Below, piece after piece: positions 3,352 to 60,303 of a stretch of 64,000 nt of DNA. The number at the start of each line of letters is the position of its first letter. The stretch's first letter is position 1. Source of the DNA: a virus. Its lineage: Duplodnaviria; Heunggongvirae; Uroviricota; Caudoviricetes. A program made the position numbers and the translations under genes. Below the pieces are notes generated by a model. It saw only the letters and a list, made by a program, of their open reading frames with translations. It did not search any database and was not told the DNA's origin. The stretch lies in IMG/VR virus record IMGVR_UViG_3300030035_000081, positions 64,001-128,000 of that record. The stretch is one strand, 5' to 3'.

Positions 3352-3488
3352 TTGCACAAATGTGCGAACCGCCTAAAATAATAATTGCATAACAGATACC
3401 ATCACTTACCTCCTAATTGAACATTAAGTTAACAATCTGTCATGCATAAGTAAGCAGACTCTCTTTTGAGGGCCTGCTTCTTTTTTTT
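3352..3488 (+). promoter_or_regulatory. Degenerate copy of promoter-leader-terminator module
   Basis: ttgcac-N5-TGCGA-N6-taaaat, cagatacca, GCAGACT...GGCCTGC-T run; lacks GTAC arms. Confidence 0.65.
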
Positions 3489-3534
3489 GTATGTATTGAT
3501 TAGAAACAAAAATATTTCAGAAAGGATGAATACT

Positions 3535-3777
3535 ATGACCACAAATACCAAGAACAGCTTTACCAGGTTCGCGGCTGCCGCAAAAGATTGCTTCTATGTG
3601 AATTCTTTTCGCGCAGACTTAGTTCAGTGCGACAGGGCCTTGAAAATGGACGGCGAGATGCACGTCGAAGCGGAATGCTGGATGAACATTTTGGATGCCC
3701 TGGACGATAACGACATCAAGATGTATGTCGATAACGAATACCGTCCCGGACTTTTGAACCCGTTCCATAAATGGTGA
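3535..3777 (+). CDS. Hypothetical protein, paralog of 19410..19655
   Basis: Shared AECW...L....D..I..YV...Y.PGLLNPF. Confidence 0.8.
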   Translation: MTTNTKNSFTRFAAAAKDCFYVNSFRADLVQCDRALKMDGEMHVEAECWMNILDALDDNDIKMYVDNEYRPGLLNPFHKW

Positions 3778-3791
3778 CGCTCCAAAAACAA

Positions 3792-3823
3792 GTCAATAAC
3801 CCACGACTAAAGTCGTGGGCTTG
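3792..3823 (+). mobile_element. Orphan IscB-element end (omega-RNA-proximal hairpin)
   Basis: gtcaataacccacgactaaagtcgtgggcttg, 1 mismatch to 11427..11458. Confidence 0.85.
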
Positions 3824-3882
3824 CGTCAGTAAGAAATCCCACCAAAAATAAAAAATACCCGAAGTGTGAAAGGAGCATAACA

Positions 3883-4365
3883 ATGCTTAATTCAAATATC
3901 AATAAAGCCCTTGAAATCAACTCGAATAAAGCCGTTCTTCTCAGCATCAAGAAGCAATGGCTTGAAAAAATTCTGAGCGGAGAAAAGACTATTGAGGTCC
4001 GAAAAACTATGCCGTGGGAAATTAGCTATCCTTTTGTAGTATTTTGCTACGAAACCAAAGCTAACGGTGGTGCTGGAAAAGTGACTGCCGCATTTGTTTG
4101 CCGTGACATCAATACACTCGATTGCCTGCGTGAGCTTCCGGCATATGCTATTGGTACGGAAGTGACCGCAAAGACCGCTCAATTCGTGAAGGACAGCTGC
4201 CTTACCGCAAATGAGCTGATTGCATACGGCAATAAGTCCGGCACTCTTTATTGCTGGAACGTTTCTGATGTCCAATCTATGGATATGTCGCTGCGAGAGC
4301 TCGGCGTTAAGCGAGCACCACAGTCCTGGATGTATCTGCGGATTCCCGATAACAAGACGTTCTGA
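3883..4365 (+). CDS. ASCH/PUA-domain protein
   Basis: LLSIK..W...ILSGEKTIEVRK and APQSW.Y motifs. Confidence 0.85.
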   Translation: MLNSNINKALEINSNKAVLLSIKKQWLEKILSGEKTIEVRKTMPWEISYPFVVFCYETKANGGAGKVTAAFVCRDINTLDCLRELPAYAIGTEVTAKTAQFVKDSCLTANELIAYGNKSGTLYCWNVSDVQSMDMSLRELGVKRAPQSWMYLRIPDNKTF

Positions 4366-4517
4366 ACGATGTCTGTTTGGGCTGGCTACGTGTACAAGCC
4401 AAACAAAATATCAACCACACGATAAAAACACACTCGAATGAATGATTCATCGTGCGAACAACGCAGACTCTCGATTCTTGAGGGCCTGCTATTTTTTTAT
4501 TTCAGGAGGAAACATCA

Positions 4518-5057
4518 ATGATTCTTTATCATATCATGGCAGACACCGGATGCCTGCCGGACGATGTTGTTCCGCAGATACCAACGAATCGGATGAAAGG
4601 GGAGGACCAGGAAATCCCAAGAATTTGTCTTGGGCATACCATTGACGACTGCCTGACCAGCATCGGCATTGCGCATTTTGTCTCAAAATTCCTGCTCGCT
4701 GAGCTGCGTCAGAACAAAAAATACTCCAAGGACATGCCGTTACCGTTCATTATCCGAATGTACAACATCAAGGACGAAGACCCGAATCTCTTGACCGAGG
4801 AAGAAACACAGAAATATGTGGCGGATTCTGTCGTGACCAGTGAATGCTGGCTCACAAGATACGAGAAACCCGTCAAAATCCAGAAACTTTGGCTTGTGGG
4901 CGGCGAAGTGGTGCTTTGGCCCTATATCGTTGACGGTGTTGTATACAATTACCCAATCGTCCGTAACTCAATTTGGGCAGACAGCAAAACCTTGCCGGAC
5001 CCGGAATTTCAGAATCAAATCATGGATATCACTCAGAAATGGCTTAACGAAGCCTGA
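4518..5057 (+). CDS. Hypothetical protein
   Basis: 179-aa ORF, AGGAGG RBS; preceded by GCAGACT/GGCCTGC terminator at 4463..4498. Confidence 0.8.
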   Translation: MILYHIMADTGCLPDDVVPQIPTNRMKGEDQEIPRICLGHTIDDCLTSIGIAHFVSKFLLAELRQNKKYSKDMPLPFIIRMYNIKDEDPNLLTEEETQKYVADSVVTSECWLTRYEKPVKIQKLWLVGGEVVLWPYIVDGVVYNYPIVRNSIWADSKTLPDPEFQNQIMDITQKWLNEA

Positions 5058-5079
5058 AAAAGAAGCACATCAAAAGCTC

Positions 5080-5216
5080 TTGCACATCCTTGCGAATTCC
5101 ATAGTATTAAAGTTGTACGACAGATAACATCTACTTGGCACACCGCGTGCTCGTACAATTCATAATTCTGTTCTCATTTAAGGCAGACTCATCTTCATGA
5201 TGGGCCTGCCTTTTTT
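5080..5216 (+). promoter_or_regulatory. Promoter-leader-attenuator module copy
   Basis: TTG-N8-TGCGA, ttgtacga...tcgtacaa, aattcataat, GGCAGACTCA..TGGGCCTGCC-T6. Confidence 0.9.
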
Positions 5217-5272
5217 GTTTTCAGGAAGCCGTCATCCACCCATTTTAACAGCGACTGATAAGGAGGTCCGCT

Positions 5273-5470
5273 ATGTCTATTTTCAAACATTTTACTCCGA
5301 AAAACACCCGCTTCGCCATCTATGCCGGTAACCCAGGTTTTTCCGGCATGGTTATCTGCTCCGATTTTATCGGGTATGTTAAAGCCCCAACGCTCAGCGA
5401 CGCCTATGATGCAGCGTATCGGTATCTTGCCAACAGCGGATATACCGCCATCGTAGTTCGTGAAGCATGA
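5273..5470 (+). CDS. Small hypothetical protein
   Basis: AAGGAGGT RBS, 65 aa. Confidence 0.7.
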   Translation: MSIFKHFTPKNTRFAIYAGNPGFSGMVICSDFIGYVKAPTLSDAYDAAYRYLANSGYTAIVVREA

Positions 5471-5552
5471 AGTTTTTCCAACAACCGAACATCTATCACA
5501 TCCCGCCAGACAGTTATTGTCGGCGGGAACTTTATTTAAAGGAGTAATCACA

Positions 5553-6347
5553 ATGAACGACAAATTGAAATTCTATGCCGGAACCATCGCTTTCATGCTC
5601 AGCGTTATCACCATTATCGGCTGCATAGCCTGCTTTTTCTCGACGCCTGCGTATGCTACGCCGGTAAAGACAGCTAACGATTCCGATATCGAGTATGTCA
5701 CGCCGTTGGAGGTCCATCTTCGGGAGCTCAACGCTCAGCCGCCTTTCGCGCCGGTACTGCCTGTACCTGAACCGGAAACGACTGAGACGGAGCCTGAATC
5801 TGAGCCCTCTGTAGAGACGGCAGAGACTGCGGTGGAACCTGCAGAAGAACCTGTGACGAACACGATTCCTCAGAACCTTTCTGACAATGAGTACGCCATC
5901 TACACAGCATTGCGGGATGTGGGTCTTTCCAAGGCCGGTACTGCCGCAGTGATGGGCTGCATGTCGATGGAAAGCGGTCTTAAAGCCTCGGCCGAAAACC
6001 CTTCGGATGGCGGCTATGGACTCCTGCAATGGACTTATAGCCGAAAGACAGACCTTTTCAACTGGTGTTATGGCAATGGCTATGACCCCAACACCGTTAC
6101 GGGACAGGTGATGTTCTTCGTGTATGAGCTCAATAGCACATACAGCAAGGCCGCCAAATACTCATATCCGGTGTACGAAACTCTCACTACAAGCGACAGC
6201 CTGGAAGATTGCCTTTCGATGTTCTTCTCCCATATGGAAGCAGGAACCAACGTGATAATCTCTTCCCGCAAAGTCTATGCAGGAGGGCTGACCACGTTAG
6301 ACCTGTACCGCAAACGCTTAACTGCCGCTTACAAATACTTCATTTGA
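5553..6347 (+). CDS. Secreted/anchored phage-tail-type lysozyme-domain protein
   Basis: N-terminal hydrophobic segment, Pro/Glu linker, AAVMG.M..ES...GGYGLLQWT..R (Phage_lysozyme2-like). Confidence 0.75.
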   Translation: MNDKLKFYAGTIAFMLSVITIIGCIACFFSTPAYATPVKTANDSDIEYVTPLEVHLRELNAQPPFAPVLPVPEPETTETEPESEPSVETAETAVEPAEEPVTNTIPQNLSDNEYAIYTALRDVGLSKAGTAAVMGCMSMESGLKASAENPSDGGYGLLQWTYSRKTDLFNWCYGNGYDPNTVTGQVMFFVYELNSTYSKAAKYSYPVYETLTTSDSLEDCLSMFFSHMEAGTNVIISSRKVYAGGLTTLDLYRKRLTAAYKYFI

Positions 6348-6364
6348 ATTAGGAGGAAATCACA

Positions 6365-6700
6365 ATGAAAACAACCGTTTATCTGTCCCGAAAACTCTTG
6401 AACCAGTTAAAGGTAAAAGAAACCGAAAGCAAAGACCTTATGCTAACCCATAACCTACACAACATCATCATCAACGGTAAGCGTGTTGGCTGCTCTGGCC
6501 ACATTCAGAACGTTCTCAACAATAAGTGCGTTTACGTCAGCACTGAAAAGAGTTGCTATCAGCCCTTGTCTGACAAGAACATGGTTCGCTATGCCGCCAG
6601 TATGAAAGATTACTCCTCTGTATCGCTCGGCGCAAAAGGACGTAATCAGTTCGTGACCAATGATGAGTTGGTTGGGAAAATTATTGATATGCTCCGATAA
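6365..6700 (+). CDS. Hypothetical protein
   Basis: AGGAGG RBS, 111 aa. Confidence 0.8.
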   Translation: MKTTVYLSRKLLNQLKVKETESKDLMLTHNLHNIIINGKRVGCSGHIQNVLNNKCVYVSTEKSCYQPLSDKNMVRYAASMKDYSSVSLGAKGRNQFVTNDELVGKIIDMLR

Positions 6701-6727
6701 GGGCATAAACAGAAAGAGAAAAAACTC

Positions 6728-6898
6728 ATGAAAACCGGCATCAAGAGTCAGATAGTAATAGTATCTGCTGTGGCAGCTGTTCTGCTCATTGTTATGAGCG
6801 TCTGCGCAATTGCGGAGAGCATTACCTTTGAGAAGGTTGCTGCTCTCACTGCAAGCGCACTTACCTTAAACAAATGCTGCGGCATCCTGTTAAACTAA
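6728..6898 (+). CDS. Small membrane protein
   Basis: 56-aa hydrophobic ORF below the ORF-track cutoff, fills the operon gap. Confidence 0.5.
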   Translation: MKTGIKSQIVIVSAVAAVLLIVMSVCAIAESITFEKVAALTASALTLNKCCGILLN

Positions 6899-6910
6899 GG
6901 AGAAAAAATC

Positions 6911-7495
6911 ATGAAGAATAAATACAAAGTTGTTGCCTTGGTTCCTTTGGAGTTCTCTGTTGAGGGAAACTCCGATTCCAAAGAGGCAATCGAATCCGTC
7001 AAAAACATTTTCGAAACGTGTCGGGATGATAACGACTGCGCGGACATCGTTTTTAATGGCATCGAAGAGTCACTTCGTCACGACAGTATCGAGTACAAAG
7101 TTGAAGCCGCCCAGCCTGAACCTGAGGTGAAGGCAAATTCCGATATCCGTTCTGTTGCCTCCGATATCTGCGACGTCTTCGAAAACTATCTCGACGAAAA
7201 CGGTGTCTATATTGTGTGTGACGATGCAGACGAGGAGCAAGACCGAAAAGCAAACGAAAGCGGCGCGATGTTGTATGGCATGGAATATTGGCATCTTGTC
7301 GAAGATGTCGAGTTCCGTGTGAATCATATAAATGCACAATACAAGCTGTTCACCGTCTTTGATATTATGGAGGTATTTGATAAACTTCTCATTTCCAAAA
7401 AGCTTGGTGACTTTGTACCGAGCGGCGAAAATCGTTACCGTTTGTATGCAAAAATCCTGAGCTGTCTGCGTTCTATCAGGGAGGAATTGTCATGA
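6911..7495 (+). CDS. Hypothetical protein
   Basis: AAGGAG RBS, 194 aa acidic. Confidence 0.8.
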   Translation: MKNKYKVVALVPLEFSVEGNSDSKEAIESVKNIFETCRDDNDCADIVFNGIEESLRHDSIEYKVEAAQPEPEVKANSDIRSVASDICDVFENYLDENGVYIVCDDADEEQDRKANESGAMLYGMEYWHLVEDVEFRVNHINAQYKLFTVFDIMEVFDKLLISKKLGDFVPSGENRYRLYAKILSCLRSIREELS

Positions 7496-8019: not shown

Positions 8020-8040
8020 CAATTGGGGAGGTTACCCAAC

Positions 8041-9635: not shown

Positions 9636-9640
9636 CAGCC

Positions 9641-9955: not shown

Positions 9956-10086
9956 TTGCGGATTTATGCGAACGGCCTATAATCAAAAATGTACGATAGA
10001 TAACAGTTATCGAAAAGGCACCCTGCCCTTCGCACACTTAACAATGCGCTTTAGGCGAACTTCCCATTTGGGTGGTTCGCCTTTTT
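9956..10086 (+). promoter_or_regulatory. Promoter-leader-attenuator module copy
   Basis: TGCGA-N6-tataat, tgtacgatagataaca, GGCGAACTTCCC..GGTTCGCC-T5. Confidence 0.85.
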
Positions 10087-10113
10087 GCGTATAAAAGAAA
10101 GGAAGTAATCAAA

Positions 10114-10948: not shown

Positions 10949-11434
10949 ATGAAACTCTACATCCAAGGCGAACACGGTAAGCTCCTAACTTTCACCCCGG
11001 AAGAAATCAAGGAAAAGCTCGGTATTCCATTCGATATCGCTGCTCTTGGCATCGAGGTAGATGATGGCGACACCACCATCAGGGCTCAGTCATACCCCAA
11101 ATGGGATTATCAGAACGGGAACCCGCCCATTGACCTCTGTGTCAATGAAATGCAGGTTGGCTCACTGGCTATGCCGACGCCCAACATTCCGGCTCCCGTC
11201 ATTTATCTTTATGATGAACAGGGGCAGGATGAATCGGATTGGTTTGCATGTACCAGCTTTGCACCCCGTGCATCTGGTGACGAAAGTTCTCACGTCGTCT
11301 TCTGTGACATGAGTTTTGGCAATGCGTTTGCGACCACAGACGTTTTTGTGAATTCGCGCACGGGAATTCCTTTCGTGCAGTGTTCCACTGAGAATCAACT
11401 TTCTGATTTCAGGAAAGCTGATTCCCGTCAATAA
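10949..11434 (+). CDS. Hypothetical protein (paralog family A); last codons supplied by the IS end
   Basis: P.P...YLY...E.DW motif shared with 14964, 44277, 45017. Confidence 0.8.
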   Translation: MKLYIQGEHGKLLTFTPEEIKEKLGIPFDIAALGIEVDDGDTTIRAQSYPKWDYQNGNPPIDLCVNEMQVGSLAMPTPNIPAPVIYLYDEQGQDESDWFACTSFAPRASGDESSHVVFCDMSFGNAFATTDVFVNSRTGIPFVQCSTENQLSDFRKADSRQ

Positions 11435-11725
11435 CCCACGACTAAAGTCGCGGGCTTGCATCAGCGAGTCTACGCTTTAGAAATGTCCGAAAGGATATGT
11501 TGACTACCCTAAGTGCTTCGAGCACTCCGTTATAAGCGAATAGATAGTTACCGTGCGGCGTTAATCCTAACTGCACGCTCTAAGGCAACACATCAAAGAA
11601 ATCTGAGGTAAAGACAACAGGTGTGGCTGCATTAAACCGCTTATAACTTTGGGGAAGGATTAGCTTCTTCGGAAGTAACTCCTCTTCGGAGGAGAGGACA
11701 GCTTATCATTAGCTGTCACACAAAT
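11427..11725 (+). ncRNA. omega RNA (HEARO-like) scaffold
   Basis: ~300-nt structured non-coding region upstream of iscB, conserved with compensatory changes in copy 2. Confidence 0.85.
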
Positions 11726-11743
11726 AGAAAGGAGCATGGTATC

Positions 11744-13006
11744 ATGCAATATGTGTATGTGCTTAACAAACACGGCGAACCTTTGATGCCGTGCTCTCCA
11801 CGCAAGGCTCGCTTATTGTTAAAGCAGAAGAAAGCATGCGTTGTAAAACGCACACCGTTTACAATCAAGCTCCTGTATGGAAGTACAGGATACAAACAAC
11901 CTATTACTTTGGGCGTAGATGCAGGCAGCAAACATATTGGCATATCTGCTGCCACTGAAAAGTACGAGCTCTATTGCGAAGAGGCAACTCCACGCAATGA
12001 TGTGGTTGATTTGCTTTCTGCACGCCGTGCTTTCAGACGCAGCAGGCGAAACCGCAAAACCCGTTACCGTGCGCCGCGTTTCAACAACAGAGTGCATAGC
12101 AAGCATAAGGGCTGGTTAGCGCCATCAGTGGAGGTCAAGATTCAAGAACACATTACGCTTATCAAGCGAGTATGTCGTATTTTGCCGGTTACGTTCGTCA
12201 GAGTAGAAACAGCAGAGTTTGACACACAACGTCTAAAAGCAATGCTGGAAGGTAAACCTCTGCCGGTAGGCACAGACTATCAGCTTGGTGAAATGTACGA
12301 TGAGTACAATGTACGCCAGTATGTGTTAAAGCGTGACAATTATACGTGCCAATGCTGCGGTGCGCATCCAACAAAAACAAAAGCTGTAAAGCTGCATGTG
12401 CATCATATCGAGACCCGTAGAACAGGTGGCAATGCGCCAAACAACCTTATCACGCTATGCACAGCTTGCCATAAAGCTCTACACGCTGGAAAAGTAACAC
12501 TTGACGGCAAAAAACGTGGCAGGTCTCTCAAAGATGCAGCTTTTATGGGGGTTATGCGTAAGACACTTATGGAACGCTTGCTTAAAGAGCTGAAGATTCC
12601 GGTACAAGGGACTTATGGCTACATAACCAAGTACTTGCGTGAGAAGCATAGTATTCCTAAAAGTCACACCAACGATGCACGCTGCATTAGCAAGAACCCA
12701 TTGGCCATACCTTGCGATACTTGCTACTACACGAAGGCTATACGCCACCATAACAGACAGCTGCACAAAGCAACTATCCTAAAAGGTGGTATACGCAAGG
12801 CTAATCAAGCTCCGTACACCGTAAAGGGTTATCGTCTTTGGGACAAAGTATCCTATAATGGCTCAGAATGCTTTATCACAGGCAGACGAACTTCTGGATA
12901 CTTCGCTCTTAAAAAATTGGACGGTACTGTTGTTTCTAATAGCGCGTCCTACAAAAAAATGCGGCTACTAGAAGTCGCAACAAATTATATTACAGAAAGA
13001 ATGTGA
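11744..13006 (+). CDS. iscB: IscB RNA-guided endonuclease
   Basis: PLMP N-terminus, RuvC-I GVDAG, Arg-rich bridge helix, RuvC-II VE, HNH (CxxC..HHI..N..C..CH), RuvC-III HTNDA. Confidence 0.95.
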   Translation: MQYVYVLNKHGEPLMPCSPRKARLLLKQKKACVVKRTPFTIKLLYGSTGYKQPITLGVDAGSKHIGISAATEKYELYCEEATPRNDVVDLLSARRAFRRSRRNRKTRYRAPRFNNRVHSKHKGWLAPSVEVKIQEHITLIKRVCRILPVTFVRVETAEFDTQRLKAMLEGKPLPVGTDYQLGEMYDEYNVRQYVLKRDNYTCQCCGAHPTKTKAVKLHVHHIETRRTGGNAPNNLITLCTACHKALHAGKVTLDGKKRGRSLKDAAFMGVMRKTLMERLLKELKIPVQGTYGYITKYLREKHSIPKSHTNDARCISKNPLAIPCDTCYYTKAIRHHNRQLHKATILKGGIRKANQAPYTVKGYRLWDKVSYNGSECFITGRRTSGYFALKKLDGTVVSNSASYKKMRLLEVATNYITERM

Positions 13007-13127: not shown

Positions 13128-13156
13128 CTTGCGCAAATGTGCGAGTCTCATAAAAT
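13128..13156 (+). promoter_or_regulatory. TGCGA-type promoter (no leader)
   Basis: ttgcgc-aaatg-TGCGA-gtctca-taaaat after terminator 13083..13115. Confidence 0.75.
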
Positions 13157-14880: not shown

Positions 14881-14963
14881 CCTTTTTGCAATTCTCAAAC
14901 TGTTTTTTGGCAGACCTTCCAACCGAGGGCCTGCCCTTTTTATTGTTGCCAGGAGGAAAATCT

Positions 14964-15851: not shown

Positions 15852-15981
15852 TTGCGCTTTCGTGCGAGACCCGTATAATTTAGCTTGTACGATAGATACC
15901 ATCTACTAAGCACACTGTGTGCTCGTACAATTCACACTTCGCTTTAAGGCGGACTTCCCACACCGGGAGGTTCGCCTTTTT
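15852..15981 (+). promoter_or_regulatory. Promoter-leader-attenuator module copy
   Basis: ttgcgc-N5-TGCGA-N6-tataat; ttgtacga-tagataccatcta-gcacac/gtgtgc-tcgtacaa; GGCGGACTTCCC terminator. Confidence 0.92.
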
Positions 15982-16007
15982 GCGTACAAGAAAAAAGGAG
16001 TGTTATA

Positions 16008-20653: not shown

Positions 20654-20778
20654 TTGACGGCGTGTGCGACACCCATAAAATAGATAATGTAACAGAGATA
20701 TCATTGATTTGCCATAGTTCATATACCTCCTGGAAGAAGGACAGATGCCCATATTGGGTTTCTGTCCTTTTTCTTTTT
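20654..20778 (+). promoter_or_regulatory. Degenerate promoter-leader-terminator module
   Basis: ttgacg-N5-TGCGA-N6-taaaat, tgtaacagagatatca, aaggacaga..tctgtcctt terminator. Confidence 0.55.
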
Positions 20779-25139: not shown

Positions 25140-25255
25140 TTGCGTATTCGTGCGAAACGCATACAATAAAAATTGTATGATAGATAACAGCACATATACG
25201 CTATAATTTCACAATTCTGAGAAGCAGACTATCCGTTTGGAGGTCTGCTTTTTTT
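25140..25255 (+). promoter_or_regulatory. Promoter-leader-attenuator module copy (short)
   Basis: TGCGA-N6-tacaat, ttgtatgatagataaca, ttcacaattctg, AGCAGACT..GGTCTGCT-T7. Confidence 0.8.
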
Positions 25256-29506: not shown

Positions 29507-29639
29507 TTGCACATTCGTGCGAGACCCATACAATTAGAATTGTACGATAGATACCAGCAATTGAAAAGGTGCTTTGCCTTTCGTACAATTCACATTTCGC
29601 TTGAAGGCGAACTTCCAATATCTGGAGGCCCGCCTTTTT
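29507..29639 (+). promoter_or_regulatory. Promoter-leader-attenuator module copy
   Basis: All sub-motifs; perfect antiterminator ttcgc/gcgaa. Confidence 0.92.
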
Positions 29640-29668
29640 GCGTACTTACAAAAAAAGGAGTGTAAATT

Positions 29669-33164: not shown

Positions 33165-33303
33165 TTGCCAAAATATGCGATTCGCCTAAAATGAAAGTTG
33201 TACGATAGATACCATCTACTTGGCGCGTTTTTTTTGCGTTCGTACAATTCATAATTCTGCAAGCAAAGAGCAGACTCACCGTCTTGGTGGGCCTGCCTTT
33301 TTT
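33165..33303 (+). promoter_or_regulatory. Promoter-leader-attenuator module copy
   Basis: All sub-motifs present. Confidence 0.92.
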
Positions 33304-34719: not shown

Positions 34720-34850
34720 TTGTAGGAACGTGCGAGCTGCATAAAATAGTATTTGTACGATAGATAACAGCCTATGCCTACTTGGTCGTACAATTTACAA
34801 TTCTGCAAATAAATGGCAGACTCACCGTCTTGGTGGGCCTGTCTTTTTTT
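34720..34850 (+). promoter_or_regulatory. Promoter-leader-attenuator module copy
   Basis: All sub-motifs present. Confidence 0.9.
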
Positions 34851-35669: not shown

Positions 35670-35798
35670 TTGCTCAAACGTGCGATTCCACTAAAATTGA
35701 AATTGTACGATAGATAACAGCCCTATGGCCGAAATGCGTACAATTTACAATTCTGCAAGACAATCAGCAGACTCACTATCTCGGTGGGCCTGCTTTTT
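35670..35798 (+). promoter_or_regulatory. Promoter-leader-attenuator module copy
   Basis: All sub-motifs present. Confidence 0.9.
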
Positions 35799-35827
35799 GC
35801 TTTCAAACAATAAAAGGAGAAATAATT

Positions 35828-37774: not shown

Positions 37775-37910
37775 TTGCCATACTTTGCGAATGGCATAGA
37801 ATAGTTATTGTACGATAGATACCAACTTGTGCAGCACTTTCGCTGCCGTACAATTCACAACCTGCAAGCATCGAGCAGACTTGTCCTTTATGGATGAGTC
37901 TGCTTTTTTT
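37775..37910 (+). promoter_or_regulatory. Promoter-leader-attenuator module copy
   Basis: All sub-motifs; preceded by terminator 37741..37772. Confidence 0.9.
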
Positions 37911-41407: not shown

Positions 41408-41544
41408 TTGCCAAAATGTGCGAAACAAGTAGAATGAGTATTGTACGATAGATACCATTCCAAATCAAAAAGGCTTTCTGCCTTTCGTACAATTCACAAT
41501 TCTGCTTGAAGGCGGACTTCCCGATTTTGGGAGGTCCGCTTTTT
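41408..41544 (+). promoter_or_regulatory. Promoter-leader-attenuator module copy
   Basis: All sub-motifs present. Confidence 0.92.
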
Positions 41545-41578
41545 CATGTCAGAAAATGTCAGAAAGGAAGATTTTTCA

Positions 41579-42588: not shown

Positions 42589-42722
42589 TTGACCTTTTGT
42601 GCGAACGGCATAGAATAGTATTCGTACGATAGATACTATCCGCATGGACGCTATTTGCGTTCGTACAATTCACAATTCTGCTTTAAGGCGGACTTCCCGA
42701 TTTTTGGGAGGCCCGCCTTTTT
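42589..42722 (+). promoter_or_regulatory. Promoter-leader-attenuator module copy
   Basis: All sub-motifs; arms read ttcgtacga / ttcgtacaa. Confidence 0.92.
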
Positions 42723-42748
42723 GCATTTATCAGAAAGGAAGATTCTAA

Positions 42749-43989: not shown

Positions 43990-44121
43990 TTGCATTAACG
44001 TGCGACTGGCATACAATAGTAATTGTATGCCAGATACCATTTTACTTTGGGCGTTTTTCGCTCGTAAAATTTACAATTCTGCTTTGAGGCGGACTTCCTA
44101 ATTTTGGGGGTCCGCCTTTTT
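43990..44121 (+). promoter_or_regulatory. Promoter-leader-attenuator module copy
   Basis: Slightly degenerate arms (ttgtatgc / tcgtaaaa). Confidence 0.85.
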
Positions 44122-44276
44122 GCGTCAACAAAAAGAAAGGGGTGTAATAAATTTGCGGAAGGCAGTTTTTGGATTGCGATTGTTTGAATGACTTCGATTT
44201 TGCTGCACTGACCGTCTAAAAGGGTGTACTAAACTATATCCGTGACTACATCGAGAAAAGATAAGGAGAAAACACT

Positions 44277-47381: not shown

Positions 47382-47474
47382 TTGACCTTTTGTGCGAACG
47401 GCATAAAATAGTATTCGTACAATTTACAATCCTGCTTCGAGGCGGACTTCCCGATTTTGGGAGGTCCGCTTTTT
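47382..47474 (+). promoter_or_regulatory. Collapsed module copy (leader interior deleted)
   Basis: Matches 42589 copy but has only one ttcgtac. Confidence 0.9.
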
Positions 47475-47501
47475 GCGTTCAAAAAAGGAGTGTATTTGAA
47501 A

Positions 47502-49611: not shown

Positions 49612-49746
49612 TTGCCAAACTATGCGAACGGCATAGAATAGTTATTGTACGATAGATATCATCTACTAAGGCGCAATCCTGCGTTCGTACAATTCATAAT
49701 CTGCAAACATTCAGGCAGACTCATCTCCGGGTGAGCCTGCTTTTTT
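49612..49746 (+). promoter_or_regulatory. Promoter-leader-attenuator module copy
   Basis: All sub-motifs present. Confidence 0.92.
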
Positions 49747-51425: not shown

Positions 51426-51559
51426 TTGCCCCAGTGTGCGAACCGCATAAAACAGTAACTGTACGATAGATACTATCTAAAGCACAATTCGTGTTCGTAC
51501 AATTCACAATCTGCAAACAAGCGGACTTCCCAAATTCTGGGAGGCCCGCTTGTTGTTTT
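51426..51559 (+). promoter_or_regulatory. Promoter-leader-attenuator module copy
   Basis: All sub-motifs; weak T-tract. Confidence 0.88.
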
Positions 51560-52866: not shown

Positions 52867-53001
52867 TTGCCAAAATGTGCGAACCGCCTAGAATGGTATT
52901 TGTACGATAGATACCATCTACTAGGCACTTTTTGTGGTCGTACAAAAATTCATAATTTCGTTGAGGCGGACTTTCCGGAGAATCGGGAGGTCTGCCTTTT
53001 T
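52867..53001 (+). promoter_or_regulatory. Promoter-leader-attenuator module copy
   Basis: All sub-motifs present. Confidence 0.9.
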
Positions 53002-53021
53002 GCGTAGAAGGGAGTATTTTT

Positions 53022-53747
53022 ATGTCAACCAGAAAAATCTTATTCCGTGGTCAGACTCGGCGCAAGGGGGAAAAGACCTCCATATCCGGTAAACCTCTGC
53101 CTGGCATCTGGGTCGCGGGCGGCGTCTTTCCTCAGAACAAGGGATATGATTACGCGATAATCTACCAGCAGAACCCGAAGATTGAAAAGTACGTTGTACA
53201 TGCGGACACTATTGGCCAGTATACTGGCATCAACGATTCTCTCGGCAATTTCATCTTTGAAGATGACATCATCACTTTCTGGCTGAAGAATGATGCGACC
53301 CGAACATGCCGCAAGGGTGTAGTCGAGTATTCTGAATCGTCGGCCCGTTTTATGGTTCGCGTTTGCGAATCCACGGACGTTGTCATGCTCAAGGATTGCT
53401 GCTGCATTCACGTGATTGGGAATGTCTTTGACGGTGAATTCGACAAGAGTGAAAGCGAAATGAAGCAACTTTATACGGAATGCTTGAACCTTGCAAAATT
53501 CATTGACGCTATCATGCTCTGCTACAGCCCGGACATCGACGCTCTCAAAGCTGAAAATCTTTCTGATATGGCTGTGCGCTTGCTCGATGGAGTTTCCCGC
53601 CGTGACGTTGTCAAGGACTTAGAGGATTTTCGTGACAAGTGGAGGCATTACAACGAACAGACAGCAGCAGAATCTCAAGTGATTCTTGACAAAATTTCTG
53701 AGCTGTTCGAAAAGGATGGTGATAGCAAGTCAATAACCCACGACTGA
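53022..53747 (+). CDS. YopX-family protein (last codons from the IS end)
   Basis: R.ILFRG, TIGQYTG..D..G..IFE.DI, VIGNVFD. Confidence 0.85.
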   Translation: MSTRKILFRGQTRRKGEKTSISGKPLPGIWVAGGVFPQNKGYDYAIIYQQNPKIEKYVVHADTIGQYTGINDSLGNFIFEDDIITFWLKNDATRTCRKGVVEYSESSARFMVRVCESTDVVMLKDCCCIHVIGNVFDGEFDKSESEMKQLYTECLNLAKFIDAIMLCYSPDIDALKAENLSDMAVRLLDGVSRRDVVKDLEDFRDKWRHYNEQTAAESQVILDKISELFEKDGDSKSITHD

Positions 53748-54033
53748 AGTCGCGGGCTTGTGGAAACACGAGTCTGTGATTTCAGCTGTGCCCGAAAGGG
53801 TGTGTTGACTACCCTATGCGCATTAAGTTGCGCCTCGTTATAAGCGAATAGATAGTTACCGTGTAGCGTCAATCCTAACTGCACGCTCTAAGGCAACACA
53901 TCAAAGAAATCTGAGGTAAAGACAACAGGTGTGGCTGCATTAAACCGCTTATAACTTTGGGGAAGGATTAGCTTCTTCGGAAGTAACTCCTCTTCGGAGG
54001 AGAGGATAGCTTATCATTAGCTGTCACACAAAT
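53729..54033 (+). ncRNA. omega RNA (HEARO-like) scaffold
   Basis: Homologous to 11427..11725. Confidence 0.85.
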
Positions 54034-54051
54034 AGAAAGGAGCATGGTGTC

Positions 54052-55314
54052 ATGCAATATGTGTATGTGCTTAACAAACACGGCGAGCCTTTGATGCCGT
54101 GTTCCCCACGCAAGGCTCGCTTATTGTTAAAGCAGAAGAAAGCATGCGTTGTAAAACGCACGTCGTTTACAATCAAACTCTTGTATGGAAGTACAGGATA
54201 CAAGCAACCTATTACTTTGGGCGTAGATGCAGGCAGCAAGCATATCGGTATATCTGCTACTACTGAAAAGCACGAGCTCTATCGTGAAGAAGCAACTCCA
54301 CGCAATGATGTCGTTGATTTGCTTTCTGCACGCCGTGCCTTCAGACGCAGCAGACGAAACCGTAAAACCCGTTATCGTGCGCCACGTTTCAACAACAGGG
54401 TACATAGCAAGCACGAAGGCTGGTTGGCACCATCGGTAGAGGTCAAGATTCGGGAACACATTACGCTTATCAAGCGTGTGTGCCGTATCCTGCCTGTTAC
54501 GCTCGTCAGAGTGGAAACAGCAGAGTTTGATACACAACGTTTGAAAGCAATGCTGGAAGGCAAGCCTCTGCCGGTAGGCACAGACTATCAGCTTGGTGAA
54601 ATGTACGATGAGTACAATGTACGCCAGTATGTTCTGAAACGCGATAACTATACGTGTCAGTGCTGTGGAGCACATTCTACCAAAACTAAAGACGTAAAGC
54701 TGCATGTGCATCATATTGAGACCCGTAGAACAGGTGGCAATGCGCCAAACAACCTTATCACGCTATGCACAGATTGTCACAAAGCGCTTCATGCCGGAAA
54801 GGTAACACTTGACGGCAAGAAACGAGGCAAGCCTCTTAAAGATGCGGCTTTTATGGGCGTTATGCGCAAAACGCTTATGGAGCGCCTGCATAAAAAGTTA
54901 AAGATTCCTGTACAAGGAACTTATGGTTACATAACCAAGTACTTGCGTGAAAAGAATGGTATCCCTAAAAGCCACACCAACGATGCACGCTGCATTAGCA
55001 AAAATCCATTGGCTATACCTTGTGATACTTGCTACTACACAAAAGCGGTGCGTCACCATAACAGACAACTGCATAAAGCAACCATTCTGAAAGGCGGTAT
55101 ACGCAAAGCTAATCAAGCGCCGTACATCGTAAAAGGCTATCGTCTTTGGGACAAGGTATCCTGTAACGGCACAGAATGCTTTATTACAGGCAGACGCACT
55201 TCTGGATACTTTGCTCTAAAGAAGTTGGACGGTACTGTTATTTCTAACAGTATATCTTACAAAAAGCTACGGCTATTAGAAGTTGCAACAAATTATATTA
55301 CAGAAAGAAGGTGA
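54052..55314 (+). CDS. iscB: IscB RNA-guided endonuclease
   Basis: Same motifs and length (420 aa) as 11744. Confidence 0.95.
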   Translation: MQYVYVLNKHGEPLMPCSPRKARLLLKQKKACVVKRTSFTIKLLYGSTGYKQPITLGVDAGSKHIGISATTEKHELYREEATPRNDVVDLLSARRAFRRSRRNRKTRYRAPRFNNRVHSKHEGWLAPSVEVKIREHITLIKRVCRILPVTLVRVETAEFDTQRLKAMLEGKPLPVGTDYQLGEMYDEYNVRQYVLKRDNYTCQCCGAHSTKTKDVKLHVHHIETRRTGGNAPNNLITLCTDCHKALHAGKVTLDGKKRGKPLKDAAFMGVMRKTLMERLHKKLKIPVQGTYGYITKYLREKNGIPKSHTNDARCISKNPLAIPCDTCYYTKAVRHHNRQLHKATILKGGIRKANQAPYIVKGYRLWDKVSCNGTECFITGRRTSGYFALKKLDGTVISNSISYKKLRLLEVATNYITERR

Positions 55315-55755: not shown

Positions 55756-56139
55756 ATGATTACTTTACCTACTAACCATCCCTATTTCTTCACTTGCCCG
55801 TCTTGTGGCTGCAAGCTTATTTCCGTATCCAGCGGTGTAAAGGCTAAACCGCATTGTCCGGAATGTGACTATTCTGCTGATGACGCATTCGTGGTCAAGG
55901 ACCGCGTCATGAACGAAGCTATGAATGTCATCGCCGATAACGCGGAACTGGCTGAAAATTTTGCCGAAACTATCAAGAACGAAATTGCAAGCGATGATGA
56001 TGCCTATGCACACATCGGGTTTCATCTAGCAAACGATATCCGGAATCAGAGTCCCGCATCCGAGGTGCTCTTGACCCTTTGCGGCTGGAACATCGACACG
56101 CTGCTCGACAAAACGCCTCCCATCGCTATCGAGGACTGA
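55756..56139 (+). CDS. Zn-ribbon hypothetical protein
   Basis: CPSC...CPEC; AAGGAG RBS. Confidence 0.75.
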   Translation: MITLPTNHPYFFTCPSCGCKLISVSSGVKAKPHCPECDYSADDAFVVKDRVMNEAMNVIADNAELAENFAETIKNEIASDDDAYAHIGFHLANDIRNQSPASEVLLTLCGWNIDTLLDKTPPIAIED

Positions 56140-56186
56140 CGCCATTGGTACTGTCCAGAACGTCAAAACTTTAGCACAAATACGCC

Positions 56187-56323
56187 TTGCTGATACGTGC
56201 GAATCAGAGATAATAATATTTGTACGATAGATATCATTTGTCTTTGACAAGGTCTCTTGTGCATGTACTATTCACAATTTCGTTGAAGAGCGGACTTCTT
56301 GTTATTCAGGAAGCCCGCTTTTT
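56187..56323 (+). promoter_or_regulatory. Promoter-leader-attenuator module copy
   Basis: All sub-motifs, slightly degenerate 3' arm. Confidence 0.85.
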
Positions 56324-56351
56324 ATATTAAATTTTAAGGAGTGTATTATCT

Positions 56352-57410
56352 ATGTCTAACAAAACAAACCAATCCGTTCTGGTCAATGACACCAGCAGCT
56401 ACTACCTCAAGCAGTATGCAGCTCTGCAGTTCCCGGGCTCCGTTGACAATTTCGGGACCAAGACACCCATTCATCTTTTGCAGCAACAAGAAGAATCTGA
56501 GCACAGCGTATCCTTACGTGAAGCTTGCGATTCGGACTATGACCTCGATGGTGCGCAGTTCTTGTTCGAGGGCGCGACTTATGACTCGGTGACAGATTTG
56601 GTCAAGGACAATCTGTGCCTTGACGACGAAGAATCGATTCAGGAATACAATGAGCATCCTCGGTTTGACCCGTTCATTTCGTATGAAGAACTGGTTGACA
56701 AAAAGAATGCCGACAGGGAAGACATCCGCGATATTCGTGATTCGCACCGTCTCGACACGATGGCCGACTATGTCGATATGTACTCCACGGCAAGCGGGTA
56801 TGATACAGCAGATGATATCACGGTTCTGCTTCCTTCTTCCTCGTATGAAACCATAGGCATGGCGTTCACACATCAGGCTCTCAAACAGTATGAGAAGTCG
56901 ATTGACAATCATCTATTCCGCAAACATCGCTGCTATGCGGCGTGCGGAGAAGACTATAGCCGTGAAGCTGGCGACTACTACCCCATCATGAATTTCATTC
57001 GTGATGCAGGGGAGCAGCTGCTGATTCAGGACCTCGAGAACTTTGATGTCAAAGTGATGGAGCTTGCTTCCGACGATGAAGTCGCTGACTTTTATTGCGA
57101 ACATCCTCACGAGTTGTTTCGAACTGCTTATATCAAAGTCTCTGAAAAAGACACCATTGGCAAATGCTATTCTCGTCTGTACGTCTTTTGCTCCGGTCAC
57201 GAGGAAACCTTCTCTGACGGAAGCAGTTTCCCGGTTTGCGACAGCCATTATGTCAAGGCCGTCAAGGAAGGGAAGGAATACAAAGTTCCTTATCCTTTTG
57301 ACTGCAACCGTTTCGCCGATGAACTGAACAAAAAGTCCAATGAAAAGGAACGCTTGACACCCGCTCAGCGCCTTTTCTTCTGGACTGAGTACAAAAAACC
57401 TATCGAATAA
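56352..57410 (+). CDS. Hypothetical protein
   Basis: 352-aa acidic ORF, AAGGAG RBS. Confidence 0.85.
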   Translation: MSNKTNQSVLVNDTSSYYLKQYAALQFPGSVDNFGTKTPIHLLQQQEESEHSVSLREACDSDYDLDGAQFLFEGATYDSVTDLVKDNLCLDDEESIQEYNEHPRFDPFISYEELVDKKNADREDIRDIRDSHRLDTMADYVDMYSTASGYDTADDITVLLPSSSYETIGMAFTHQALKQYEKSIDNHLFRKHRCYAACGEDYSREAGDYYPIMNFIRDAGEQLLIQDLENFDVKVMELASDDEVADFYCEHPHELFRTAYIKVSEKDTIGKCYSRLYVFCSGHEETFSDGSSFPVCDSHYVKAVKEGKEYKVPYPFDCNRFADELNKKSNEKERLTPAQRLFFWTEYKKPIE

Positions 57411-57428
57411 CAAAGAGGAGAAATTGCT

Positions 57429-57629
57429 ATGAAAAGCTTTAATGTTGTTGTGACCGTTTCCACTACCATCTGCGTTGATGCCAACACCCCTGAGGATGCC
57501 ATCAAGAAAGTACAGAAGGCACTTGACGCCAACGATGCTGGGACTGCCATGCAGCTTGGCGAAAACCTGTCGTGTGCTTTGCGCGATGGCGGCTATCAGG
57601 TGACTAATGCCGTTGAAGTGGACGAGTAA
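57429..57629 (+). CDS. Small hypothetical protein
   Basis: MK.F.V.V......V.A...EDA pattern. Confidence 0.7.
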   Translation: MKSFNVVVTVSTTICVDANTPEDAIKKVQKALDANDAGTAMQLGENLSCALRDGGYQVTNAVEVDE

Positions 57630-57642
57630 GGGGAGATGCGAT

Positions 57643-57831
57643 ATGACAATCCCTTTAATTCCTTGTCCTTCCTGTAACTTTACGCTCAAGCCTGTCTGGT
57701 TCTTAGAAAAGGAGCTGGACAATCACGGCATCCCGACCGGACGCACTCGCAAGGCTTGCAGCTGCTTGCTCTGTGATATGTGCGGATACAAAGAAACAGT
57801 AGACGATTCAATCGATGAACCGTACAAATGA
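57643..57831 (+). CDS. Small Zn-ribbon protein
   Basis: CPSC...CDMCG. Confidence 0.7.
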   Translation: MTIPLIPCPSCNFTLKPVWFLEKELDNHGIPTGRTRKACSCLLCDMCGYKETVDDSIDEPYK

Positions 57832-57848
57832 TTTAAGGAGCAAAAGAA

Positions 57849-58025
57849 ATGATTAGATTTTATATTCAGAATTTAGAGGATTTTGATGAGGCTTGTGAGG
57901 CTCTTGACTCCTGCGGTGTTAAATTCGAATTGGACGGTGGCGACCGCATTATGGTTGAAGATGAACTTCGTCAGGATGCGCTCAGTGTCTTCGACGAATA
58001 TGACATTGATGCTGAGGAGGTCTGA
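57849..58025 (+). CDS. 58-aa mini-protein (family D)
   Basis: AAGGAG RBS; MIRFYIQNLEDFDEACEALDSCGVKFELDGGDRIMV...; not in ORF track. Confidence 0.75.
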   Translation: MIRFYIQNLEDFDEACEALDSCGVKFELDGGDRIMVEDELRQDALSVFDEYDIDAEEV

Positions 58026-58028
58026 ACT

Positions 58029-58241
58029 ATGCTGCGTCCCAACAAAATCAGTCCCCAAAAACCATGCCCATTCTGCGGTGCCTTTCTCGAAAATCAAGCA
58101 CCCAGCGTCCTCTGGTGCCACCCGCAAAACGGTTGTTTGCTGAGTCTCCGTGCTATCGCCGGAGACGACCAAATTGCTCAGTGGGATACGCGATACGGTG
58201 AGACGGCTGGCAAAAGCAATGTAAATTGTGAGGAACGATAA
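58029..58241 (+). CDS. Lar-like (restriction alleviation) Zn-finger protein
   Basis: KPCPFCG...W.TR signature. Confidence 0.55.
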   Translation: MLRPNKISPQKPCPFCGAFLENQAPSVLWCHPQNGCLLSLRAIAGDDQIAQWDTRYGETAGKSNVNCEER

Positions 58242-58408
58242 TGGCCAGATTTTTCGTTTATAGCACGAAGGAAGCTGCTGTGGCTTTGAAAGAAGCGCAT
58301 ATCCCTTACCGGGTACACGGCGAATGCTGTATATCGGTGAACAATGATGATTACAGCACCGCTGTTGAGGCTTTCTTTCGCAACGATGTAAGTTTTCAAC
58401 CGGAATAA
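58241..58408 (+). CDS. 55-aa mini-protein (family D)
   Basis: GAGG RBS; MARFFVYSTKEAAVALKEAHIPY...; not in ORF track. Confidence 0.7.
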   Translation: MARFFVYSTKEAAVALKEAHIPYRVHGECCISVNNDDYSTAVEAFFRNDVSFQPE

Positions 58409-58422
58409 AGGAGGTATTTCTC

Positions 58423-58599
58423 ATTACAAGATTCTTGGCGTTTGGCCTTGCTGCCGCATGCGCCGCACTTGCTCAGGAAGCGATTCCGTATTCACTTGAC
58501 TGCCATCGACTGATTCTGGTTGATGAAAGCCATTACTTTGAAACCATTGATATTTTCGATGATTACGACATCGATTTCGATGTTATCGGAAATTTTTGA
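58423..58599 (+). CDS. 58-aa mini-protein (family D) with ATT start
   Basis: AAGGAGGT RBS then ATT-TRFLAFGLAAACAALAQEAIPY...FDDYDID. Confidence 0.55.
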   Translation: MTRFLAFGLAAACAALAQEAIPYSLDCHRLILVDESHYFETIDIFDDYDIDFDVIGNF

Positions 58600-58612
58600 A
58601 AGGAGAACTGTT

Positions 58613-58888
58613 ATGTTTACAAAAGAACTCTATAAAATCACATGTACCCGCAACGGTGAAACCAGCGATATCGGCACTTATTTGCTGAAGCCTGGTCCCG
58701 AGGCTCCAATGGACTGCTACCGCAACTTTTTGAACAAAACGGATGTGGCCGTTTCCATCAAAAGCGTACCGGACGGATTTATCGTCACTGATAATTCTGA
58801 ACCTGACACCAGCTACCACCTGATGTTTATCCCGATGGACGACGATTTCTGGGCCCGCTGCGCGGCTGAGAAAGAAACGAAACAATAA
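58613..58888 (+). CDS. Hypothetical protein
   Basis: AAGGAG RBS; terminator follows. Confidence 0.75.
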   Translation: MFTKELYKITCTRNGETSDIGTYLLKPGPEAPMDCYRNFLNKTDVAVSIKSVPDGFIVTDNSEPDTSYHLMFIPMDDDFWARCAAEKETKQ

Positions 58889-58930
58889 TATTTGCCCCTT
58901 CATCCCTTTTGGGATGAGGGGGCTTTTTTG

Positions 58931-59065
58931 TTGACACTGCTTGCGAAAGGCTGATAATAAAAGCTGTACGATAGATACCATCTATAGCGCCATTTGGGCC
59001 GTACGAAAAATTCATAATCTCGCACAATGAAGGCAGATTCACTTTCGGGTGAGTCTGCCTTTTTT
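58931..59065 (+). promoter_or_regulatory. Promoter-leader-attenuator module copy
   Basis: All sub-motifs present. Confidence 0.88.
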
Positions 59066-59098
59066 ATTTGCGCGAACACAAGAAAGGAATTAACAACA

Positions 59099-59320
59099 AT
59101 GATTGCAAACCTAAAAATCGGTCCGTGCCCTAAGTGTGGAAGCACTACGTTCCATGCGACAGCACACGTCACTCAGACCTGGCTTGTTGATGAGGACGGC
59201 GAGTTCATCAAGGCCGAGACCAACTGCGATGAGGTAACTCATTCTCCCGACACTGAGGACTTGTTTGAGTGCTCTAAATGCGGGGCTGAGGTTCCAGCAA
59301 AGTATGTGTACAGCGAATGA
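59099..59320 (+). CDS. Small Zn-ribbon protein
   Basis: CPKCG...CSKCG. Confidence 0.75.
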   Translation: MIANLKIGPCPKCGSTTFHATAHVTQTWLVDEDGEFIKAETNCDEVTHSPDTEDLFECSKCGAEVPAKYVYSE

Positions 59321-59417
59321 TTCCGCGACTACTTTTGCAAAACCATTCGTACATACCATCGTCAAAAAGCAGGCATGGCCTAACGATTTGTTAGGGTACT
59401 TTTTGGAGGGAAATACT

Positions 59418-60179
59418 ATGAAAAATCGTGTACCTGAAGTCTTTTTGTCCGAAATGTTCGGCGAATTGCGCATCATGGAGGATGACAACAAATTCTATTT
59501 TTGCGCCGCAGATGTTTGCTCAGCTTTAGGCTACTCAAACCCAAGCCATGAACTGAACATACATTGCCGCCATGATGGCATCAGGGCTGGCAGAGCGGAT
59601 GTAAACGGCGTTCCCCGCATCATCAAGTTCATCTCGGAAGGCAACGTATATCGTCTAATCTGCCGCTCAAACAAACCCGAAGCGGAAAAGTTTGAGACCT
59701 GGGTTTTTGACGAACTCTTGCCCCGGATTCGCCAGACCGGCGGTTATGTAAATGACCCAGTAGTCTTTGTCGATAATTGGCTTCCGAACACGGACGCCAA
59801 AACTAAGGTTTTGCTTGTCACTTCGCTGGAAGCTGTCAAGAATCAGGACAACATTATCGGCGTGCAGCAGGAGAGTGTTGAGTTCCATCGCGCAGTGAGT
59901 GCATCCGTGAACAGCGTCGATTTCGGCGAGTTTGCAAAATGTCTTGCCAACGACCGTATCAACATCGGCCGCAACCGTCTGATGGCGTGGCTGCGCAAAG
60001 AAAAGTATATTGACTCTGCAAATGTTGCTTACCAGCGCTACATCGACCAGGGAATCTTCGAGGTTAAGGAAACGGTGTACTATGTCGGCACCACTTACCA
60101 TACATCGCGTAAGACGCTGATTACTCCTAAGGGGCAGGTATATTTGGCAAAGAAGGTTTCTAAAGAATACAAAGGCTGA
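59418..60179 (+). CDS. BRO-N / KilA-C (ANT) phage antirepressor-like protein
   Basis: FG.LR....F.A.DV..ALGY.N, ISE..VYRLI.RS.KP.A..F..WV, IGRNRL..WLR, T.ITPKGQ. Confidence 0.9.
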   Translation: MKNRVPEVFLSEMFGELRIMEDDNKFYFCAADVCSALGYSNPSHELNIHCRHDGIRAGRADVNGVPRIIKFISEGNVYRLICRSNKPEAEKFETWVFDELLPRIRQTGGYVNDPVVFVDNWLPNTDAKTKVLLVTSLEAVKNQDNIIGVQQESVEFHRAVSASVNSVDFGEFAKCLANDRINIGRNRLMAWLRKEKYIDSANVAYQRYIDQGIFEVKETVYYVGTTYHTSRKTLITPKGQVYLAKKVSKEYKG

Positions 60180-60185
60180 TTTTGC

Positions 60186-60303
60186 TTGACCGCGCTTGCG
60201 GAATGAATAAAATCAGTCTTGTACGATGGATACCAGCAAATCCATAGTTATTCACAACCTGTAGCAGAAAGCAGACTCATCTTCGGATGGGCCTGCTTTT
60301 TTT
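60186..60303 (+). promoter_or_regulatory. Promoter-leader-attenuator module copy (no 3' GTAC arm)
   Basis: ttgtacgatggatacca..atcca, attcacaacctg, AGCAGACTCA..TGGGCCTGCT-T run. Confidence 0.82.

Follow-up and report, generated by a model that had tools for sequence, protein, structure and literature searches.

The 64,000-nt stretch analysed here (hereafter the window) comprises positions 64,001 to 128,000 of IMG/VR record IMGVR_UViG_3300030035_000081, a 142.7-kb source record that we call G000. It carries a dispersed element of ~135 bp in which a promoter is followed by a short RNA leader and an intrinsic terminator that stands before the first gene of the unit. All copies in the window lie on the + strand; 22 are full or degenerate, one has an internal deletion and two are 3' halves. 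An earlier note, made from the letters of the window, had listed 21 copies and two degenerate ones, and a + strand promoter is present at each of them. The 3' halves that it placed near 4463 and 14890 are likewise real, with a UUHAYA-like motif and a competing hairpin. The copy at 47382 retains its promoter, 3' motif, hairpin and terminator, but it is not the full copy it was taken for, since the 5' motif and three proposed stems (P1-P3) are deleted. The features are as follows, beginning with the reference copy.

41408..41435, + strand: promoter TTG-N8-TGCGA-N6-TANAAT of the reference copy, with a 16-bp spacer and TGCGA at 41419-41423
41443..41457, + strand: predicted +1 (G) and 5' motif GUACGAUAGAUACCA of the reference copy; G9, A10, U11, A12 and A15 are invariant in the alignment
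41485..41490, + strand: P1 3' strand UCGUAC of the reference copy, optional across the family
41493..41499, + strand: 3' single-stranded motif UUCACAA (family UUHAYA) of the reference copy
41501..41516, + strand: putative antiterminator hairpin UCUGCU/GGCGGA of the reference copy, its 3' strand being the base of the terminator 5' arm
41511..41545, + strand: intrinsic terminator hairpin and U-tract of the reference copy
3352..3483, + strand: degenerate copy without P1, promoter to U-tract
4445..4496, + strand: 3' half with UUCAUC, competing hairpin UGCG/CGCA and terminator, without a promoter
5080..5216, + strand: full copy
9956..10087, + strand: full copy with one P1 mismatch
13129..13156 (also 19692, 20394, 23612 and 63440), + strand: leaderless promoter of the same type
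14890..14941, + strand: 3' half within an operon, with UUCUCAA, competing hairpin and terminator
15852..15982, + strand: full copy; the downstream unit has an NAD-dependent ligase gene
20654..20773, + strand: degenerate copy without P1; hairpin UCCU/AGGA co-varies with the terminator arm
25140..25254, + strand: copy without P1
28378..28505, + strand: full copy
29507..29640, + strand: full copy, hairpin type UUCGC/GCGAA
31455..31590, + strand: full copy
33165..33303, + strand: full copy, hairpin type UCUGC/GCAGA
34720..34849, + strand: full copy; a 5'-nucleotidase-like gene is next
35670..35799, + strand: full copy
37775..37909, + strand: full copy
42589..42723, + strand: full copy
43990..44122, + strand: full copy with an altered 5' end
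47382..47476, + strand: internally deleted copy; the loss between two TTCGTAC repeats removes the 5' motif and P1-P3 and spares the 3' motif, hairpin and terminator
49612..49746, + strand: full copy
51426..51558, + strand: full copy; an N6-methylase-like gene is next
52867..53002, + strand: full copy; a YopX-family gene is next
56187..56324, + strand: full copy
58931..59065, + strand: full copy; the unit has a Bro-N/ANT antirepressor-like gene
60186..60302, + strand: copy without P1

A sequence profile built from 20 copies found the copies at E values of 1e-7 to 1.5e-36, together with three near-full ones outside the window, while its best match in five Markov-shuffled genomes reached only E 0.28. 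With a covariance model, full-length matches in the window numbered 23, of which 22 were there by construction, and the two halves matched weakly. The earlier note had not recognised the element as a named family, and in a scan with Rfam 15 no family reaches its gathering cut-off over the leader copies: the window yielded two HEARO hits only, away from the leaders, and the best score between 28000 and 53500 was Trp_leader at 29.9 bits (cut-off 41), over the terminator part only. The deletion allele at 47382 was not found in IMG/VR.

Leaders were collected (288), reduced to 100 non-redundant ones and aligned in 92 rows, a set without the longest, the shortest, the hairpin-less and one mis-called leader. 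Two conserved single-stranded motifs run through the set, AGAUAMCA on the 5' side and UUHAYA on the 3' side. The invariant columns are G9, A10, U11, A12 and A15, the UU of the 3' motif and the U-tract, with the invariance of A15 and part of GAU favoured by the rule by which leaders were selected. Both motifs are retained while the spacer between them varies from ~12 to 90 nt, and no covariation was found between them (n=86), which fits recognition by sequence. Some leaders in related records described below (G001:C1:5582, G006:C1:102978 and G159:C1:51735) are longer and carry a conserved insert, GTCCTCCGGAACCAATCCGGTCG, between the motifs.

The earlier note folded the leader as a three-way junction of P1, P2 and P3, and parts of this fold were borne out. 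Of 99 non-redundant leaders, 72 form P1 and about a quarter lack it; in the alignment 84% of its cells are paired, with two-sided changes in just four cells. P2 is not conserved, being complete (5/5 pairs) in just 9 of the 26 leaders of this record, and 57% of alignment cells are paired at its two outer positions. The compensatory UGGAU/AUCCA pairing at 60227 is real, but it closes an 8-nt loop within a copy that lacks P1. Because P1 is often missing and P2 is unconserved, the three-way junction is one common form of the leader and not its functional core. The terminator, as claimed, is firmly supported: 95% of its cells are paired, with two-sided changes at 11 of 12 pairs.

The first reading of the leader had no antiterminator to compete with this terminator, but such a hairpin is present in 95 of 95 scorable leaders (one with a wrong terminator call was dropped from the scoring). 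It has 4-7 bp, lies directly past UUHAYA and shares its 3' strand with the terminator, where that strand forms the base of the 5' arm. Duplexes between a leader's own partners average -5.86 kcal/mol, against -4.97 +/- 0.14 kcal/mol for permuted partners, and 0 of 5000 permutations reached the observed mean. The two strands change together: a CAG terminator arm pairs with a CUG/UUG strand in 36 of 41 cases, CGG/CGA with a UCG strand in 27 of 43 and UGG with CCG in three, and the table of co-changes (32, 3, 12, 27) gives a Fisher p of 7e-8, a value inflated by kinship. Unrelated versions of the hairpin also occur (UCCU/AGGA, CCUGCUU/AAGCAGG, CCCG/CGGG and, in a 3' half, UGCG/CGCA). Furthermore, a competing hairpin accompanies 59 of 68 leader terminators versus 54 of 153 other terminators, a few rows being mislabelled either way. 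In an independent set chosen by the two motifs alone, terminator and hairpin were found in 53 of 55 cases and the promoter in 50 of 55. These data suggest that the terminator/antiterminator switch is very probably real.

The predicted energies describe a weak hairpin facing a strong terminator. The hairpin is worth ~-1 to -10 kcal/mol, with stem and loop of variable sequence, and forcing it costs a median of 10.3 kcal/mol relative to the free fold (n=93). When the small hairpin is formed, as predicted for read-through, it lies directly against the upper half of the terminator; 37 of 92 rows have an A-C mismatch at this junction.

The promoter forms a layer of its own. The pattern TTG-N8-TGCGA-N6-TANAAT, as first proposed, has 18 matches on the + strand of the window, including the leaderless one at 13129, and none on the - strand. 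A matrix of 13 informative positions gave 48 + strand hits and one - strand hit in the 142.7-kb record, and at the same cut-off none in 10 shuffles. Spacing is rigid: in G159, 23 of 24 exact matches are 8+6, one is 8+7 and none occurs at seven other spacings. The +1 was placed by a pyrimidine-purine step 7-8 nt past the -10 box. In the 3.2-Mb genome G006 the 32 promoter matches are confined to two contigs, and 150 other genomes of its family have at most one match each; as far as tested, the promoter is specific to the replicon.

The earlier note treated promoter and leader as a single unit, but about half of the promoters carry no leader. Thinning reduced 206 promoters from four relatives to 173 non-redundant ones. 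Of these, 71 have the 5' motif, the 3' motif with hairpin and the terminator, four have both motifs with a mis-scored gene start, five have only the 5' motif and terminator, six have a loose 5' match alone, and one has only the 3' part; 22 have a terminator and neither motif, and 64 have no leader part at all. A second class (G000:C1:19374, 25658, 38263 and 52006, with relatives) consists of promoter, short A-rich leader and terminator without a motif. At G001:C1:222306 (-) and G002:C1:133216 (-), the promoter precedes a conserved non-coding RNA of ~105 nt that has a terminator and may form a pseudoknot; this RNA has no Rfam hit in L181. Promoters also show, across positions 1-22, imperfect inverted repeats of a TGCRA unit made up of the -35 box, TGCGA and the TTGCR that follows; the pattern is clearest where no leader is present.

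Leader-headed units are numerous and diverse. On the main strand of G159, 34 of 60 promoters bear a leader (one more, with the insert, was missed by the rule), and for 105 of the 213 called + strand genes the nearest promoter is one with a leader. In the window these units include ligase, nucleotidase, methylase-like, GmrSD-N, lysozyme and antirepressor-like genes, most members belonging to no family; elsewhere in the plasmid family they include SSB, primase, YqaJ-type nuclease and RecD2. The conjugation-operon promoter (G159:57519) has no leader. In all, 84 leaders precede 46 first-gene families. The proposal of a cis-regulatory leader that could gate many unrelated operons by one switch is supported. 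The accompanying description of the targets as anti-host genes did not hold, as no anti-restriction or anti-CRISPR family was found among the window proteins scanned. In 11 pairs, leaders that are at least 90% alike head unrelated genes, a sign of cassette shuffling that agrees with the PeSL-like cassette role once suggested for the element; the leaders likely double as recombination points that shuffle cargo operons. In the unit headed by the 3352 copy, positions 3883-4365 encode an ASCH-like, possibly RNA-binding protein that is conserved in relatives, with a weak Pfam hit and a PADLOC PDC-M11B hit.

Although the source record is catalogued as a virus, its gene content indicates that this is not a phage but a conjugative plasmid, probably carried by Clostridia of the human gut. 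Related records include G001, G002, G006 and G159, the last a complete circular record of 222,366 bp whose ends share a 59-nt repeat, to which the window is mostly alignable at 83-99% identity. G159 encodes VirD4, a type IV secretion pilin, a ParM-like protein and VirB4, as well as orthologues of a Rep3 initiator, ParA and SSB identified in G001, and leaders are present in 5 of 5 VirB4-bearing records tested. No capsid, portal or terminase family occurs among the scanned proteins of G000, G001 (1-360 kb) and G159; a prophage at the end of G001 (360-389 kb) has no promoter of the plasmid type. Searches that included the whole G159 circle found no relaxase family, and no oriT was located, so the label 'conjugative' rests on the secretion genes. 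Within the conjugation operon, G159:C1:58187-64408 is a 2073-aa gene with no NCBIfam match, and ~20 dispersed iteron-like repeats of the AACGTAAATAAYCTC type, judged by eye, lie upstream of rep at G159:C1:23877-26334.

The tentative host assignment draws on two genomes with matches, both labelled Clostridiales bacterium, and on hepatitis delta virus (HDV) ribozymes that match an F. prausnitzii family. Tool estimates give ~690 motif-bearing stretches in IMG/VR and ~830 in metagenomes, and the plasmid family occurs in hundreds of gut assemblies. No leader match was found in PLSDB or among GenBank phages; as searched, the leader is limited to a single plasmid family.

We tentatively prefer to read the leader as a default-OFF attenuator that is opened by a bound, probably plasmid-encoded protein and so switches ~35 operons together. 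Transcription would start at the G of GUACGA, and the small hairpin would fold first. Naked RNA would then swap to the terminator, predicted to be ~10 kcal/mol more stable, releasing an RNA of ~70-150 nt. A factor reading AGAUAMCA and UUHAYA, brought together by P1 or by a short spacer, could instead hold the small hairpin until polymerase clears the U-tract, allowing read-through. The conserved unpaired motifs, targets without a shared pathway and restriction to one plasmid family make a protein the likeliest ligand. A search of G159 and G001 for an antisense partner found no inverted copy and no conserved intergenic complement, though short split sites could escape such a search. DnaA, Rex and Spo0A boxes showed no fit to the motifs in a by-eye comparison with their consensus sequences.

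Several observations weigh against this default-OFF gate or against the switch itself. Equilibrium energies leave the polarity of a co-transcriptional switch unfixed, and a gate that is closed until a plasmid protein appears is a poor fit with expression just after transfer. No sigma70 region 2 or NusG family was found in five records, nor any CAT/PRD, ANTAR, HutP or Q-type family among the proteins scanned. The hairpin has no room in 4 of 99 leaders, and about a third of ordinary terminators also show a weak competing hairpin. An underpowered, tree-aware test of the hairpin covariation on 71 rows had only three to four supported independent pairs, with the effect in the same direction (p 0.25), and the 3' halves may move as blocks.

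One protein stands out as a candidate regulator of the promoter or the leader, judging by its sequence. It has 628 aa and a helix-turn-helix (HTH) domain, and it is encoded outside the window at G000:C1:23535-25421 (-) (L002:4135-6021) and also in G001, G002 and G159; 456 relatives were found among 8000 candidates scored. Its N-terminal segment matches RNA polymerase beta' 260-328 (family profile E 2.9e-8). The structure model has a mean predicted local distance difference test (pLDDT) score of 86, and the 50 fold-search matches listed are all beta'/gamma subunits, the best at E 3.1e-5 and with low overall template modelling (TM) scores. Atlas searches with this protein returned its own HTH clusters or nothing. 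Since the beta' 260-328 surface binds sigma and NusG (PMC3382729), the modelled protein could bind either. A bolder scheme, which we regard as quite unlikely, is a two-tier control without described precedent, in which this beta'-clamp HTH protein would bind host sigma or NusG and throw ~35 attenuators through the TGCGA promoters and -10-like motifs.

The opposite polarity, which we consider unlikely though credible, is a default-ON gate. The early hairpin, stacked on the upper terminator stem, would pass polymerase in a new host, and a later plasmid protein would bind UUHAYA, block the hairpin and let the terminator form, amounting to zygotic induction at the RNA level. Such a gate would suit leader units with SSB, primase, YqaJ-type nuclease, RecD2, ligase and variable cargo, a gene content like that of establishment regulons (PMC6294495, PMC8708921). 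The leaderless conjugation-operon promoter and the A-C mismatch at the terminator switch point (37 of 92 rows) are also consistent with it. However, a hairpin of ~-1 to -10 kcal/mol is weak against the median gap of 10.3 kcal/mol, and the leaders are spread round most of the circle, on which no relaxase or oriT was located to mark a leading region.

Alternatively, the motifs may act in DNA as -10-like sites at which sigma-paused polymerase is loaded with a plasmid factor, for which the 628-aa protein could serve; lambda Q loads at such a sigma-dependent pause. This is improbable in our view, although two -10-like patterns are present (TAnnAT at +2 to +7 and YAYAAT at the end of the 3' motif) and the 27 leaders without a folded P1 keep T2 in 23, A3 in 25, A6 in 26 and T7 in 20 while positions 4-5 vary. 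The 628-aa protein, found in four of the plasmid records, matches a surface that sigma and NusG have in common (PMC3382729). Processive antitermination needs no covarying hairpin at every terminator, and TGCGA is also present in leaderless promoters. A small-molecule riboswitch, with the two motifs and hairpin as ligand pocket, seems a shade more doubtful. ZTP and fluoride riboswitches have a comparable expression platform, and the two-part design, variable linker, invariant unpaired bases and weak hairpin invaded by the terminator would all fit. Nevertheless, there is no tertiary covariation, P1 is optional, 46 unrelated first-gene families among 84 leaders indicate no pathway, and the range is one plasmid family only. 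We give least credence to the absence of any switch, that is, to a copied promoter-terminator cassette with low fixed read-through, yielding short RNAs and serving as a cargo recombination point. The 11 near-identical leader pairs ahead of unrelated genes and the 22 promoters with a terminator but neither motif agree with such a cassette, but the hairpin is kept at a fixed place despite wholesale change of sequence, and both motifs persist across the whole range of spacers.

Among known systems, the leader has two features of attenuators in general: a terminator before the first gene and a mutually exclusive, conserved antiterminator helix. In RAT antiterminators (BglG/LicT/SacY), the 3' strand of a weak hairpin overlaps the first bases of a stronger terminator, and in both RAT elements and the ZTP riboswitch a bound ligand rescues the weak hairpin from terminator invasion. 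By analogy, the leader has the geometry of these ligand-rescued weak-hairpin attenuators. It resembles RAT in this overlap and in a predicted default-OFF state, but its hairpin sequence and loop vary, its conserved bases lie outside the hairpin, and ~35 targets occur per replicon; no CAT/PRD Pfam family was found among the scanned plasmid proteins. T4-type PeSL units are repeated promoters with stem-loops that flank variable genes and can recombine. The leaders likewise flank variable genes and are likely recombination points, but they lie on a plasmid and not a phage, and their terminator has a competing hairpin. The lambda PR'-tR'/Q and nut/N systems have the order promoter, short RNA, terminator and genes, with an element in the promoter spacer and a single-stranded box by a hairpin. 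The leader shares all of this, but no Q, N or NusG-type family was found, and its hairpin loop is unconserved and overlaps the terminator.

Conjugative plasmids offer further parallels. EGeRS1 of pLS20 is GC-rich, spans 420-750 bp in five copies, has no constitutive sigma-A promoter and blocks read-through (PMC8708921, PMC6294495) by a mechanism stated as unknown (PMC8708921); EGeRS2/Reg576 of p576 is a DNA operator for a repressor (PMC8708921, PMC6294495), and the CUP regions of pKM101 exceed 400 bp (PMC6294495). Like these, the leader is one conserved sequence ahead of several variable operons, but at ~135 bp it has its own promoter, a terminator/antiterminator pair and ~35 copies. Its length and near-consensus promoter set it apart from EGeRS1 by description, with no leader match in PLSDB. 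EGeRS2/Reg576 and CUP/ArdK combine repressor operators at the promoter with anti-restriction genes downstream; TGCGA may be a protein site, and no ard-type family was found among the window proteins scanned. The cATT zipper attenuator of pLS20 is a single copy with a long stem before the conjugation operon and reads through by default (PMC13401043). It shares with our element an attenuator in the leader on a Gram-positive conjugative plasmid, but here the copies are many and the conjugation operon has none. The earlier comparison with conAn found no support in sequence, the first gene of the pLS20 conjugation operon (ConAn1 by position) giving a best match at E 0.32, which is not significant.

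The leader could not be assigned to any named family tried and is an uncatalogued RNA family that would form a plasmid-wide regulon. Four motif strings occurred in no full text searched, and six were absent from the searchable supplements of PMC8040213 and PMC10690425; since five large files lay outside that search, the motif may stand in those supplements as an unnamed candidate.

These results bear on how large plasmids of Gram-positive gut bacteria time their accessory genes: in a common gut plasmid family, roughly half of the genes lie behind a single type of short, mutable RNA, probably a gate. Natural variants already separate the parts that are needed (two motifs, hairpin, terminator) from those that are dispensable (P1-P3), which opens the switch, its factor and its trigger to direct experiment; the leader model can also serve to locate the regulon in any relative. 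If the two-tier scheme were true, half of an abundant gut plasmid's genes would be switched as one programme; the beta'-clamp-like plasmid protein would be of interest in its own right.

The plasmids also encode secY, secE, secG and trigger factor (G001 200-260 kb; G159 33-36 kb), and G001 additionally encodes sortases, adhesins of 4,000-7,700 aa, a type I Cas3/5/7 set, tRNAs and tmRNA. At 11427-13006 and 53729-55314 the window has two HEARO RNAs, each with an RRXRR/HNH (IscB-type) gene behind it, and a third HEARO lies at L001:6182-6442.

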